IMG/VR virus record: IMGVR_UViG_3300021057_000017 | Coordinates: 1-44,248 of that record | DNA length: 44,248 nucleotides | Origin: a virus | Reading direction: 5' to 3' (one strand) | In this document: piece after piece, positions 16,750 to 25,258 of the stretch | Layout: every line of letters begins with the position of its first letter | Position numbering within the stretch: position 1 is the first letter of the stretch | The notes under the pieces: generated by a model | What the model was told of the DNA's origin: nothing | The model's input: the letters and a program-made list of their open reading frames with translations, nothing else | The model's database searches: none | Program-made: the position numbers and the translations under genes

Positions 16750-16934
16750 TTAGTATCCTTCGCACAAGATGGGCAAGGCTCTTTGATCTGCTCAGAACCA
16801 AAAACGACTTGCGATCCTTCAATGTCAGGGTCTTGGGCATCTAAAGCCATATCCCTGGTGACAGTTTCATAATGCGGGACTTCACGATAGATAAAACCCT
16901 CGTCGCCACAAACTACGCATTTATACTGACTCAT
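16746..16934 (-). CDS. Zinc-ribbon microprotein
   Basis: 62 aa with CVVC...CPSC and an ATGA overlap. Confidence 0.5.
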   Translation of the reverse strand: MSQYKCVVCGDEGFIYREVPHYETVTRDMALDAQDPDIEGSQVVFGSEQIKEPCPSCAKDTK

Positions 16935-17214: not shown

Positions 17215-17340
17215 TCAAGGTTTGCGCGCCCCACATTTGCATTTGAGTTTTAAGCACGTGTAATAATAATTTTTACATCCCGTGCAATGAACATAGCGGT
17301 GACGATGCGCCCCCTTCTTCCTCGCGCTTGAGTTCTTCAT
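17215..17340 (-). CDS. Cys-rich basic microprotein (41 aa)
   Basis: MKNSSARKKGAHRHRYVHCTGCKNYYYTCLKLKCKCGARKP, with an ATGA overlap to 17337..17561. Confidence 0.4.
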   Translation of the reverse strand: MKNSSARKKGAHRHRYVHCTGCKNYYYTCLKLKCKCGARKP

Positions 17341-17561: not shown

Positions 17562-17612
17562 TAGGTATTTCCTTCTGTATTTAGTACAGCTTGATTCTGT
17601 ATATCTATCATG
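17562..17612 (-). promoter_or_regulatory. Repeated regulatory element, copy A (palindrome CTGTATTTAGTACAG at 17575-17589)
   Basis: The minus strand reads CATGAtAGATATAcagaatcaagCTGTAcTaAATACAGAAgGAAatACCTAATG. It is about 75% identical to copy B and sits in the same position relative to the ATG. Confidence 0.6.
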
Positions 17613-17634
17613 GGGGCGCTTGAGTTATTTGGCA

Positions 17635-17960: not shown

Positions 17961-18101
17961 TCATGGCTGGAATCCAACGCCTTCTTCAGGCATAGATTTA
18001 TTACCGCTTTTCTCAAACCTCTCAAAGCACCTTAAGTGTTCAGACTTTTGAACACACTGATAGCAGTAACCGACAAGTCCATGTTCACATTCCTTACTCA
18101 T
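17961..18101 (-). CDS. Cys-rich microprotein (46 aa)
   Basis: MSKECEHGLVGYCYQCVQKSEHLRCFERFEKSGNKSMPEEGVGFQP, with AGGAGAGGG upstream and ATGA overlaps. Confidence 0.45.
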   Translation of the reverse strand: MSKECEHGLVGYCYQCVQKSEHLRCFERFEKSGNKSMPEEGVGFQP

Positions 18102-18271
18102 TCACCCTCTCCTTTTTGGTGCGTGATCTTAAACACTTCAAGTCCTCCGGTAAGATAGCCTTCGAGTCTATCTAGTGCCGACTTCGTAAGACTCTCCCGT
18201 GTCAGATTCTTTACTGCTTTCACCTGGATGAGTGCGCCTTCGATGAACGATTTGAATCTAGGTTCGGTCAT
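18098..18271 (-). CDS. Hypothetical protein (57 aa)
   Basis: MTEPRFKSFIEGALIQVKAVKNLTRESLTKSALDRLEGYLTGGLEVFKITHQKGEGE, preceded by regulatory element copy B. Confidence 0.5.
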   Translation of the reverse strand: MTEPRFKSFIEGALIQVKAVKNLTRESLTKSALDRLEGYLTGGLEVFKITHQKGEGE

Positions 18272-18322
18272 TAGGTGATTCTTTCTGTATTGAATACAGT
18301 TATATTAGATATATCCTTCATG
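18272..18322 (-). promoter_or_regulatory. Repeated regulatory element, copy B (palindrome CTGTATTGAATACAG at 18285-18299)
   Basis: The minus strand reads CATGAagGATATAtctaatataaCTGTAtTcAATACAGAAaGAAtcACCTAATG. Confidence 0.6.
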
Positions 18323-18780
18323 GTGCCCTCTAGGCCGGGCGGGCCTAAAACTTGGGGTCTGCAGAGTCGAACTGCTCTTGCGGAATCACATCCGCTGTGC
18401 TCGGTCAACCTCCCGTTACACTAAGACCCGGATTCCTTCTGTAACTTAGTGTCAGCCGTCGCCATGACTGACTCTCGGATTTTATGAGCGCCCATCATCT
18501 AGTGTCTGGCTTATTTCCTCTAGACTACTTGGCATCCGATTTCCGCCTTCCTGTTCTCTCTGGTGGACCGAACCCACCTTCATATGCGAGAACGTCAGCG
18601 GCACAACTTACTGACTAGGCAGGACTGGCTACCTGCATGAGGTGTCTGTTCCGTGCTCTTTTTCGTTTCAGGGCAGTGTCCTTACTCCTACTTATCAGCA
18701 TCGACCACCTCGTAGGCCCGGATTTAACGGATTCTACGCGTCTTGGGTTACGTTCCCTTCCGCCACTAGTCATTCTTTTC
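18323..18780 (-). other. ORF-free, hairpin-rich island (candidate structured ncRNA and/or replication origin)
   Basis: All three minus frames are broken by stops. The island holds many 5-8 bp GC stems, four copies of CGGATT plus variants, two 22-nt hairpins of the form GTCAGC-N10-ACTGAC, and a degenerate third copy of the operator element at 18433-18455. Confidence 0.5.
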
Positions 18781-19059
18781 CTAATCCTTTGTGCGCTTAA
18801 AGTGGTCTTCTGCGATCCTTGCCAGACCTTCGTACATATCGCTTCCAGCGTAAGGAAGATATTCTCGGAACTTCTGAGCCAACGTCTTCTCCTTCGGTCT
18901 AGGTGTGCCGCAGATGGGGCAGAGGTTCCAACTTGTCGTTAGATATGTCACGCTATCCTCATCTTTAAATCTGTAATCCGGCTTGCACATGGGACTGTAC
19001 TGACCATATTCAATGTGTTTGCACCATTGTTCTTTTCTGTTGAAAGACAGGTCAATCAT
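18781..19059 (-). CDS. Hypothetical zinc-ribbon-containing protein
   Basis: 92-aa track ORF with AAGGAG upstream and a CPIC motif. Confidence 0.55.
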   Translation of the reverse strand: MIDLSFNRKEQWCKHIEYGQYSPMCKPDYRFKDEDSVTYLTTSWNLCPICGTPRPKEKTLAQKFREYLPYAGSDMYEGLARIAEDHFKRTKD

Positions 19060-19559: not shown

Positions 19560-19992
19560 TTAATTGACACGTTATTTGTTCCAGCTCTTCAAGTGTCCAT
19601 TTCTTCGGTTGTGCGCGTTTCTCGAAAAGATAATCAAACGTCTCGCGCCCTTCCCGGTCTATGACAACTGCCGCAATCTTCTCAGCCGCCCCATGCCAGC
19701 CATTCGCTTTTGCTTGATTAAGCCCATTACAAACAAGTGTTCCGTTTCTAGGGTCTAGGAATGTCCAGGAGTGGGTGCGCGTCCTGCAATGATCGGCTTG
19801 CTTTGGGAGTGCGCACGACGGACCGTGAACCTGGCAGATCCCCTTATCGCGCCTATAAATTGCCTGTTTCCATGCTTCCTCTGCGGCTTTTAGGGCCTGA
19901 TCGAGGAGCGATTTTCTCGATCTTTTCTTTTTGAGAGGCTTTCTTTTCTTAATCGCGCCCCCAGGATGCCCTTTTTTACGCATTAGAGCCAT
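19543..19992 (-). CDS. NinG/Rap-like protein (putative structure-specific nuclease)
   Basis: 149 aa with a basic N-terminus. CQVHGPSC...ADHCRTRTHSWTFLDPRNGTLVCNGLN recalls the Cys/His core of lambda NinG-family proteins. This is a weak call made from memory. Confidence 0.4.
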   Translation of the reverse strand: MALMRKKGHPGGAIKKRKPLKKKRSRKSLLDQALKAAEEAWKQAIYRRDKGICQVHGPSCALPKQADHCRTRTHSWTFLDPRNGTLVCNGLNQAKANGWHGAAEKIAAVVIDREGRETFDYLFEKRAQPKKWTLEELEQITCQLNGMFN

Positions 19993-20254
19993 TTCTAGGC
20001 CCCTTTCTCGTCTGGAACGATCGTTCTATCAGACTTGGCGACAAAAAGAAGTCTAGAGGCTGTTTTAGAACCCTTGCAATAATCAGCATCTCGCCGATAT
20101 CAGGCTCGGTTTCTCCACCTTCGTACCGAATCCATGTCTGCCTGGATAACTCAAGCCCCTCGCTGTAAAGCTCTAGGACTGTCTTTTCCTGGCTCCAACC
20201 AAGGGTTGCTCTGGCATCTTTCAGACGCTTGCAATTAAACCGCTTCACGCGCAC
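19976..20254 (-). CDS. XRE/Cro-type helix-turn-helix regulator
   Basis: 92 aa. LKDARATLGWSQEKTVLELYSEGLELSRQTWIRYEGGETEPDIGEMLIIARVLKQPLDFF is a typical HTH_3 layout. Confidence 0.7.
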   Translation of the reverse strand: MRVKRFNCKRLKDARATLGWSQEKTVLELYSEGLELSRQTWIRYEGGETEPDIGEMLIIARVLKQPLDFFLSPSLIERSFQTRKGPRNGSNA

Positions 20255-20640
20255 CCCTCGAATTGTCTTAGTCTTTCGTTTATTTTTTGGTGCGACAAAA
20301 AGTCGCCCTCGGGTATGTCTTTCTTGGCGTCTTTCAGCCAGTGGATCTTTGCGGCGTTTGAGTTCTCAGCTTGGCGGCAGGCCTTGAAATACGCCGAAAT
20401 CGCCTCATCATTGCCGATTTTTAGCTTCTGCTCCTGACTCAGCCTGTCATACCCATCCATCGCCGTAGGTCGAGTAGGCTTGTACTCAGGTACAACCTCG
20501 CAAAAAACCTCGTCCTGGAGAAGCATGTAAGCCATTTCTCGGTTTAGCTCGGCCTCCGTGATTTTGCCCTTGAGAAACAGGTCGAGTTGCTTGGTGCAGA
20601 GTTTTGCGATCTCGGTTTTTGCTTCAGGCATGACGAGCAT
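20245..20640 (-). CDS. Hypothetical protein
   Basis: 131-aa track ORF, coupled to the replication-organizer-like gene. Confidence 0.5.
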   Translation of the reverse strand: MLVMPEAKTEIAKLCTKQLDLFLKGKITEAELNREMAYMLLQDEVFCEVVPEYKPTRPTAMDGYDRLSQEQKLKIGNDEAISAYFKACRQAENSNAAKIHWLKDAKKDIPEGDFLSHQKINERLRQFEGCA

Positions 20641-21400
20641 TTTTGGCCTCCATTCGGGCGAGAATTGCCGCCGCTCCTGTGAGATTTGACGGGCCGCCCC
20701 CCTCGTCCTCCCAACCTTTCGCGTTAAGCCAGGTCGCGGGGTAGGGGATAAACCTACCGCCGTCTCGTAGCCACTCCGCCGAAGTCTTGGCCTGCTCTAC
20801 CGCACGTAGAATGCGGTCTTGGAGCTGCTCGTTCGGGGCTATGGCTCTCCAGGCTTTCTCGGCCTGGCCTTTGCTTTTACGCTTTGGGTACGAAGACCAA
20901 AAACTCTCAAACCCTTGGGGGGTAGGGGGGTGTTCTTTTGGTTTGGTTAGGTTAGGTAAGGTTAGGTTATGTAGGGTCGCCTTTAGGTCGCCATTAGGTC
21001 GCCAATCTCCTCTTTTCGTATGTTCTTGTGTTTGCCCATACTTACGTCCATGTTTTGCCCAGATCATTTTCAGCTTTTTTTTGTAGTGCGAAGAATATTT
21101 TTTGATGAGGTACTTGCCTGCGTAATCAACCCAATCGTGAATTAAGCCGTTTTTGGTGATGAGATAAGCGGCCTTTAAATGCTCCAAAAGGGTGTCCGGC
21201 GGGATGTTTTTATCAAGCCTTGAAAGATACTGATCTGGGCTAAAACGGCTTAGATCGCCGTCCTCTGCGTACTGTAGCGCCCACCACCAAAGCCTCATTA
21301 ACTTCCCTATTGCCTCGTCCTGGTTCCAATTAGTTAAAGCGCAAATCCTTACCAGTTTTGGATGTTCTTCTAGGCTTTGATGAGATTCAATCCATGCCAT
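20624..21400 (-). CDS. Replication initiation/organizer-like protein
   Basis: 258 aa. The N-terminus is WIESHQSLEEHPKLVRICALTNW...LMRLWWWALQYAEDGDL. The C-terminal block FESFWSSYPKRKSKGQAEKAW...GGRFIPYPATWLNAKGWEDE is a pattern common in phage replication proteins. Confidence 0.5.
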   Translation of the reverse strand: MAWIESHQSLEEHPKLVRICALTNWNQDEAIGKLMRLWWWALQYAEDGDLSRFSPDQYLSRLDKNIPPDTLLEHLKAAYLITKNGLIHDWVDYAGKYLIKKYSSHYKKKLKMIWAKHGRKYGQTQEHTKRGDWRPNGDLKATLHNLTLPNLTKPKEHPPTPQGFESFWSSYPKRKSKGQAEKAWRAIAPNEQLQDRILRAVEQAKTSAEWLRDGGRFIPYPATWLNAKGWEDEGGGPSNLTGAAAILARMEAKNARHA

Positions 21401-24895: not shown

Positions 24896-25258
24896 CTAAA
24901 CCTTTTCCGGTAGATTGTCAACATTAATTTCTTTTAATTTATTTTTGATAAAATGCGTATAACAATCTCGATCCATGAATTGATCTTCGCACCAAATTTC
25001 CTCGCCAAGAAATTTCCTCTCATCCTTGACCGGAACGTACAAAAATAAATCTTCATAGCGCATCTTTGTTTCGTTCACGATGAAGCCGACAAAGTTGCCG
25101 GAGATATTACACTGGTTATGAATAATTTGGCTGATGTAGGATGGCTTTACGCCGTACTTCTCAGCCAAGTATTTCTGATTGTTGCGAGTCAATTTGAGCC
25201 ATTTTTTGACAATTGGCCCTCTTATGAGTAGCATGTTTTCATTTACCTCCAGCTTCAC
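24896..25258 (-). CDS. Helix-turn-helix regulator (repressor candidate)
   Basis: 120 aa, AT-rich. LTRNNQKYLAEKYGVKPSYISQIIHNQ is an HTH. A terminator-like hairpin follows, suggesting an isolated transcription unit. Confidence 0.6.
   Translation of the reverse strand: MKLEVNENMLLIRGPIVKKWLKLTRNNQKYLAEKYGVKPSYISQIIHNQCNISGNFVGFIVNETKMRYEDLFLYVPVKDERKFLGEEIWCEDQFMDRDCYTHFIKNKLKEINVDNLPEKV

Follow-up and report, generated by a model that had tools for sequence, protein, structure and literature searches.

A tRNA-His-derived cloverleaf in the largest non-coding gap of a phage genome: tRNA mimic or dead tRNA gene

Why should a phage that packs its genes almost end to end leave some 460 nt untranslated? 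The question is raised by the phage record IMGVR_UViG_3300021057_000017 (IMG/VR; 44,248 bp, analysed at its full length and hereafter called the window), which is complete and has repeated ends. Its minus-strand genes between ~14.7 and 28.3 kb are tightly packed, and many carry AGGAG-type ribosome-binding sites. Among them lies a 458-nt island at 18323-18780, the largest non-coding gap of the genome, which the initial annotation took to be either a structured non-coding RNA locus or the replication origin. The island proper was delimited at 18323 because the last 51 nt before the 57-amino-acid (aa) gene 18098..18271 are a copy of a control element (control element B, 18272-18322), which forms its 3' boundary. 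The last ~110 nt of the island were found to hold a stable 77-nt cloverleaf derived from tRNA-His, and to this part the description as structured RNA applies; the other ~330 nt do not bear it out, apart from a pair of twin hairpins. Coordinates are collected in Table 1.

Table 1 Positions of the features discussed in the text, in window coordinates.
Feature	Position	Strand	Description
Untranslated island	18323..18780	-	Runs from the end of the 92-aa gene 18781..19059 to control element B
tRNA-His-derived cloverleaf, 77 nt	18354..18430	-	Minimum free energy (MFE) fold, ARAGORN -ps92, model R1, viral tRNA-His alignment
Acceptor stem	18424-18429 / 18355-18360	-	6 bp, C.C at 1:72
D arm	18397-18421	-	Stem GUGU/GCAC; 17-nt loop with internal 3-bp helix
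Anticodon arm	18380-18395	-	GCGGA-UGUGAU-UCCGC, 6-nt loop
T arm	18361-18375	-	4-bp stem, loop UUCGACU
GC-rich hairpin	18329..18349	-	Core UAGGCC-CGCCC-GGCCUA; -11.6 kcal/mol, z = -1.4
Twin hairpin 1	18594..18615	-	GUCAGU-AAGUUGUGCC-GCUGAC; arms as in hairpin 2, loop unrelated
Twin hairpin 2	18451..18472	-	GUCAGU-CAUGGCGACG-GCUGAC; folding z = -2.3
52-aa basic open reading frame, judged spurious	18615..18773	-	AGGA-5 nt-ATG; codon score -0.27
Control element B	18272..18322	-	Duplicate of the element upstream of 17561; palindrome CTGTA-N5-TACAG; outside the island
Iteron-like array	20937..21004	.	Within the initiator gene 20624..21400; better origin candidate

When the ARAGORN threshold was relaxed stepwise, the cloverleaf was the first and only call in the genome, appearing at 92% of the threshold. 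In 60 shuffled genomes this setting gave 0.35 calls per 44 kb over both strands, so that one such call inside the 458-nt island and on the transcribed strand corresponds to p ~0.002. A covariance model built from the single sequence and fold of the cloverleaf, referred to as model R1, was run on a 2-kb E. coli stretch containing four tRNA genes. It matched tRNA-Pro (E = 8e-4) and tRNA-His (E = 5e-3) over their full length, each arm in register, and gave a weaker match to tRNA-Arg. The tRNA-relatedness of the unit follows from these two results together with the His anticodon-arm match given below, the three tests being independent.

The cloverleaf is the MFE fold of its sequence (-30.8 kcal/mol) and accounts for 73% of the ensemble, at z = -3.2 for a window that was picked after inspection. 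All 22 of its 22 base pairs are standard, and all stems pair despite indels. The T stem is shortened by one base on each side, and this symmetric loss combined with intact pairing gives a hint, and only a hint, that the structure is maintained. The T-loop consensus (G53-T-Psi-C-R-A-N-N-C61) is present as G-UUCGACU-C, and the D loop contains the GG for the elbow. A T-loop-like GCAG-TTCGACT-CTGC on the minus strand, noticed earlier at this position, proved to be the T arm of the cloverleaf. The unit lies on the same strand as every surrounding gene and is followed by an AAGUUUU trailer, 3' of which stands the GC-rich hairpin. The taggcc/ggccta stem previously seen in this hairpin is present at 18331-18347; the hairpin is without a U tail and was not called by a terminator scan.

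The anticodon arm is the tRNA-His arm minus one U when compared with E. coli hisR. A pattern scan of IMG/VR found the canonical His arm together with the T loop in at least 120 contigs, and the one-base-shorter His-arm pattern in no contig. From 80 His-pattern contigs, 417 unique tRNAs were called by ARAGORN and aligned globally to the cloverleaf. The best 12 of these 417 viral tRNAs were all His, in a set that had been collected by the His-arm pattern and whose His genes are mutually related. The 5' third of the cloverleaf, which was not used to collect the set, also returned His in 8 of its 10 top matches, several of them with an identical UUAGUGUAACGG.

In an alignment with nine viral tRNA-His genes, 31 columns are invariant. 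Retained are the D stem with the beginning of its loop (UAGUGUAACGG), the GUG anticodon together with its stem, and the T loop UUCGACU. Compared arm by arm with phage tRNA-His genes (four viral contigs served as examples), the cloverleaf has in common with them U8-A9, the D stem GUGU/(G/A)CAC, the D-loop start AACGG, the (C)GGA/UCC(G) stem with GUG-A-U, and the T loop UUCGA(C/U)U. It differs from them in having no clear G-1:C73 pair or CCA end: a C rather than a G precedes the acceptor and a C follows the 6-bp helix, the register being ambiguous because of the shortened stem. The other 380 nt of the island, compared with the 417 viral tRNAs, gave no further tRNA remnant. On these sequence comparisons, the cloverleaf was shown to descend from, or to copy, a tRNA-His gene.

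As a working tRNA the unit is compromised at four places. The anticodon loop, UGUGAU, is closed by A-U and counts 6 nt, one short of the UUGUGAU seen in tRNA-His of viruses and E. coli. In the D loop there are 8-9 nt more than in viral tRNA-His, and these extra nucleotides pair into a 3-bp helix. The T stem is reduced from 5 bp to 4, and the acceptor helix to 6 bp with a C.C pair at 1:72 before it; stacked on each other, the two stems reach 10-11 bp compared with the canonical 12. Because of the four changes, decoding by this RNA is considered implausible. Rfam and ARAGORN scans had been suggested for the locus; the whole set of 4227 Rfam families gave nothing at gathering score or at E <= 10 and ARAGORN at its default threshold called 0 tRNA genes in the genome.

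Other RNA classes were tried and rejected. Transfer-messenger RNA was not called by ARAGORN (-m) even at -ps70, and no Rfam family of that class matched. A resemblance to the CR-I/CR-V regions of RNase P RNA (AAAUCCGGGC / ACAGAA..CCGGGUCUUA) was a false lead: RF00010 gave no match to the island at E <= 10, and controls matched in 11 of 14 genomes. An attP site or a host tRNA fragment was discarded as well, no integrase having been found; a 22-mer spanning the T arm and acceptor stem was absent from 185,579 species genomes and from viral contigs. Since it cannot decode, the cloverleaf is either a tRNA mimic or a dead tRNA gene.

The island is truly non-coding. As initially described, it contains no credible open reading frame (ORF); TAA, TAG and TGA are mixed in all six frames, which also rules out stop-codon recoding. 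Codon usage, expressed as a log-odds score trained on 31 genes of this phage, was negative throughout the island in every frame. The neighbouring small genes that were checked scored >=0 in frame, with the exceptions of 17961..18101 (-0.03) and 17215..17340 (-0.22). The only ORF of the island with a plausible ribosome-binding site is the 52-aa frame listed in Table 1, the product of which is very basic and had 0 matches among 1.84e9 representative proteins. A small protein was ruled out by its negative codon score and lack of a homologue. In addition, tblastx of the island against related loci detected no protein-gene remnant.

Upstream of the cloverleaf lie two 22-nt hairpins with common arms, a feature of the initial annotation that was upheld: such a pair arises in 2 of 3000 shuffles. 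Both 6-nt arms are identical in the two copies and the 10-nt loops are unrelated. GTCAG-N12-CTGAC occurs at these two sites only in the genome, and a search of IMG/VR for the twin-hairpin pattern gave no match. The sixth arm position is a C/A mismatch as DNA and a U.G pair as minus-strand RNA, in both copies. Hairpin 2 ends 20 nt upstream of the 77-nt cloverleaf and 21 nt before the first acceptor pair. The twin hairpins are probably recognition sites for one stem-specific factor. As a separate observation, TGGCGACG, which is one base off the core TGGCGACC of the iteron-like repeats in the initiator gene, occurs on the minus strand in the loop of hairpin 2 (18457-18464) and at 16901-16908; TGGCGACS has 6 sites genome-wide compared with 1.9 expected, and 6 or more were counted in 3 of 100 shuffles.

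Most of the remaining signals assigned to the island did not exceed chance. Its description as hairpin-dense was not sustained, with 11 hairpins of stem >=6 bp against 7.2 +/- 3.6 in shuffles, and the whole island folds in an ordinary way (z = -0.5 and -0.4 on the two strands). Among 120-nt windows, only 18320-18439 on the minus strand fell below z = -2 (z = -2.3), and the other ~330 nt show no structure above shuffled controls, the twin hairpins excepted. The ggtgg/ccacc stem exists at 18562-18578, one base off the position first given. Two longer direct repeats, also claimed, have an alignment score of 32 compared with 29.6 +/- 5.7 in shuffles. An internal duplication of the island was not significant, and paralogy elsewhere in the genome was limited to the control element. 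A CsrA-type GGA sponge was rejected, the GGA count equalling that of the shuffles, and a promoter scan of the island found nothing above chance.

The island is very probably not the replication origin, as judged from base composition and repeats, and the origin reading is regarded as highly improbable. In that reading, the CGGATT copies would be iterons for the initiator encoded 1.9 kb upstream, with unwinding at 18296-18316. Four copies do lie within 305 bp, of 16 on that strand genome-wide; the initiator gene belongs to the same operon, and TGGCGAC, which is the core of the initiator-gene repeats, occurs in one twin-hairpin loop. The four copies are real (18429, 18476, 18719 and 18728, the last first placed at 18729), but their number is at chance level, since some hexamer reaches four copies in 51 of 500 dinucleotide shuffles of the island; 26 CGGATT were counted genome-wide against 24 expected. 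Their spacing is irregular and unphased with the helix, at 47, 243 and 9 bp for the exact copies and 48, 47, 59, 184 and 9 bp when variants are included. Tandem Repeats Finder found no repeat array within the island, which has neither helically phased repeats nor an AT-rich unwinding element of its own. Its GC content of ~51% exceeds the genome mean of 46.8%, and cumulative GC skew shows no inflection there. The AT-rich stretch at 18296-18316, which had been placed beside the supposed iterons, belongs to control element B and is duplicated with it before another gene.

A better array, textbook-like in its make-up, was found elsewhere. Tandem Repeats Finder and a repeat search located at 20937-21004 2.7 copies of GGTCGCCATTA at 11-bp spacing and six copies of GGTTA, adjoined by an A-rich run. 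Three 11-bp repeats of the TGGCGACCTAA type lie in the linker-coding middle of the initiator gene, whose product matches phrog_9474 at 7.5e-43. In phage lambda, the origin lies inside the initiator gene O, with phased repeats next to an A/T-rich run. By analogy, this array is a candidate lambda-O-style origin; the likeness in 11-bp phasing, linker position and A/T-rich run belongs to 20937-21004 and not to the island. In practical terms, the island is dropped as a candidate origin and the array in the initiator gene is indicated instead.

Relatives were sought through loci around homologues of the 92-aa, 57-aa, initiator and terminase proteins. No DNA or structure resembling the island was found in 49 loci sharing the C-terminal domain of the initiator or in 26 loci sharing the terminase (<=78% aa identity). 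The whole records of 10 relatives contained no island homologue, and model R1 had no match over 480 kb of relatives. Searches of a phage collection in near and distant modes and of plasmids likewise returned no homologue. Neither an intact gene nor a pseudogene matching the island, as the initial annotation had considered for related genomes, was found here in relatives. The early region of this phage is almost unique.

Two relatives offer observations of their own. The relative with the most similar initiator C-terminus has a ~280-nt ORF-poor gap (L008:11401-11680) two genes downstream of its homologue of the 92-aa gene; the gap contains a long GGGCG...CGCCC stem and does not resemble the island in sequence. 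By terminase (76% aa), the closest relative is IMGVR_UViG_3300021062_000039 (hereafter G007), which encodes on the minus strand a Ro60/Rsr protein with TROVE and vWA_Ro60 domains (L091:359-1663), preceded by a YrlA-like Y RNA (L091:1841-1949; 43 bits, E = 1e-7). Another ~180 nt of ORF-free sequence also precedes the gene and is possibly a second Y RNA. Of 30 relatives, G007 alone has this module.

What the cloverleaf does can be stated tentatively, and short of even confidence: it is modelled as a processing or decoy module that imitates a tRNA within the early transcript. It would be transcribed within the early polycistronic RNA and act as a tRNA mimic. Of the host tRNA-processing enzymes, RNase P would cut at its 5' side; the AAGUUUU trailer would be cut by RNase E or RNase Z, and the GC-rich hairpin would then shield the new 3' end. 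The early mRNA would be divided in this way immediately before the internal control element (18272-18322), and a stable small tRNA-like RNA would be set free, which could occupy a tRNA-binding factor as its decoy or sponge. A stem-specific factor would be served by the twin hairpins, and the rest of the island may be spacer. Parallels exist in tRNA-like processing signals of mRNAs and in the phage regulatory RNAs P1/P7 c4 and P4 CI, where an RNase P cut frees a small RNA or separates cistrons. The likeness to these is that of a tRNA-shaped element inside a longer phage or bacterial transcript, processing being predicted for the cloverleaf; unlike the cloverleaf, those elements have no known sequence similarity to any tRNA isotype, and the Rfam C4 family was unmatched here. 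The known RNAs nearest to the cloverleaf, itself a single sequence, are those of phage tRNA-His genes, by descent, and tRNA mimics such as the bacterial and phage Y RNAs. Phage tRNAs are now viewed as a counter to host tRNA-cleaving defences, beyond codon-usage matching, and bacterial Y RNAs are a precedent for tRNA mimics as adaptors. A non-decoding tRNA-His copy that retains a perfect cloverleaf and that standard detectors miss suggests that further tRNA-derived regulatory or decoy RNAs may be hidden in the "empty" spacers of phages.

A more specific version of the mimic reading is unlikely, though worth stating for its consequences. According to it, the cloverleaf would be a functional and deliberately disabled tRNA-His mimic, expressed early, excised by the host and acting as a decoy or sponge for a tRNA-recognising host factor. 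Candidate targets are a defence nuclease cleaving tRNAs with GUN/QUN anticodons, a modification enzyme, or Ro60. If the version is true, the twin hairpins would belong to this RNA module as well, and the unit would represent a new class of phage counter-defence or host-takeover RNA, invisible to standard tRNA finders.

Several results weigh against a functional mimic. The ~190 related loci, searched with blastn, nhmmer and tblastx, contained no homologue of the island, and ordinary genes directly follow the counterpart of the 92-aa gene in two complete relatives. The Rfam tRNA model RF00005 gave nothing at E <= 10 in the whole genome; ARAGORN below its default threshold assigns the cloverleaf a different and poorer fold; and the folding z-score is subject to the post hoc choice of window noted above. 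A 10-11 bp acceptor/T stack may be a poor substrate for RNase P and the CCA-adding enzyme, and the indels would also fit a decaying pseudogene. A dead relic is a serious possibility and nearly as likely as the mimic. On this view a once working tRNA-His gene, of the phage or of captured DNA, is decaying, the other ~380 nt are junk from an illegitimate recombination or a former gene, and nothing here has a role beyond spacing. The relic would account for four independent defects relative to tRNA-His in a unit that Rfam and default ARAGORN miss, and for an island absent from all relatives, which are gene-packed there. The ~330 nt without structural or repeat signal above chance fit it too, as does the finding of no tRNA genes in the five relatives searched. 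Neutral decay would, however, be unlikely to leave 22 of 22 pairs standard and to shorten the T stem symmetrically, and the cloverleaf dominates its folding ensemble. That the two hairpins repeat their arms around unrelated loops (2 of 3000 shuffles) is a sign of selection acting on those arms, and the residual coding signal or protein similarity of a decayed gene is missing. A compact 44-kb phage with gene overlaps of 1-8 nt also rarely retains 460 nt of junk, which counts against the relic. If it is a relic, the island is a record of a former tRNA gene in this lineage.

Two further explanations give the tRNA-like unit a lesser or a different part. In one, rated as quite unlikely, the island is a regulatory region at the DNA level: the GTCAG-N12-CTGAC palindromes would be bound by a phage protein, such as the helix-turn-helix (HTH) protein 19976..20254 or 24896..25258, controlling read-through into, or firing of, the downstream control element, and the tRNA-like unit would be incidental. 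Palindromes found nowhere else in the genome, with the same arms and the unrelated centres typical of operator half-sites, directly upstream of a duplicated palindromic control element and with HTH regulators encoded nearby, speak for it. The half-sites are, however, 17 bp apart from centre to centre, which is unusual for HTH dimers; the sixth arm position, mismatched in DNA and paired in RNA in both copies, favours RNA; the promoter scan found nothing above chance; and the tRNA-His-like unit is left unexplained. In the other, which is very unlikely, the tRNA-like domain and the surrounding stems would form a Y-RNA-like adaptor binding host Ro60/Rsr. It draws on the rsr gene of G007 with its preceding YrlA-like RNA and on the tRNA mimicry of bacterial Y RNAs; the "anticodon" hairpin of D. 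radiodurans Yrn1, with a 5-bp stem and 6-nt loop, has the size of that in the cloverleaf (PMC4201824). Y RNAs (YrlA, RF02553, and Yrn1) are likewise non-decoding with a tRNA-like domain containing T and D arms, but YrlA is a circular permutation of the tRNA order, running T arm, acceptor-like hairpin, D arm, whereas the cloverleaf keeps the normal tRNA order. No YrlA match was obtained at E <= 10, with G007 as positive control at 43 bits, and no TROVE gene (PF05731) was found in the whole genome at E <= 1. As read from the sequence, the Ro-binding motif GNCGAA(N)G is absent from the flanks of the cloverleaf. The early region of G007 shares no protein with that of this phage, and YrlA was present in only 1 of 30 relatives, namely G007. 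A terminase search of species genomes for a prophage relative or host found none.

Beyond the tRNA question, the genes and elements flanking the island have features of their own. The 92-aa protein on its 5' side (18781-19059, minus strand) is a member of a small protein family of soil and groundwater metagenomes, with an invariant W-C-x-H ... CPICGTPRP-x-EKTLA-x-KF motif of zinc-ribbon appearance. In its relatives the homologous part is fused to longer N-terminal regions (ORFs of 189-240 aa). An identical 92-aa protein is encoded in four other contigs, giving five contigs in all.

Control element B, on the 3' side, is a 52-nt match with 75% identity to 17562-17613 (E = 4e-4). Two claims of the initial annotation were corrected: GAGGGCACCA, noted before operator copy B, is the 5' edge of the element, aligns with copy A and is no CCA end, and the proposed third operator copy is only a 13-nt match (GATTCCTTCTGTA) that lacks the left palindrome arm. 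Each copy of the element (18272-18322 and 17562-17612, minus strand) also contains a 16-codon frame, MKDISNITVFNTERIT and MIDIQNQAVLNTEGNT respectively, with 9 of 16 residues identical and a TAA stop that overlaps the ATG of the downstream gene (TAATG). Every shared codon is identical at the nucleotide level, so that conservation of the peptide does not follow. The control element could be both an operator and a coupled leader ORF.

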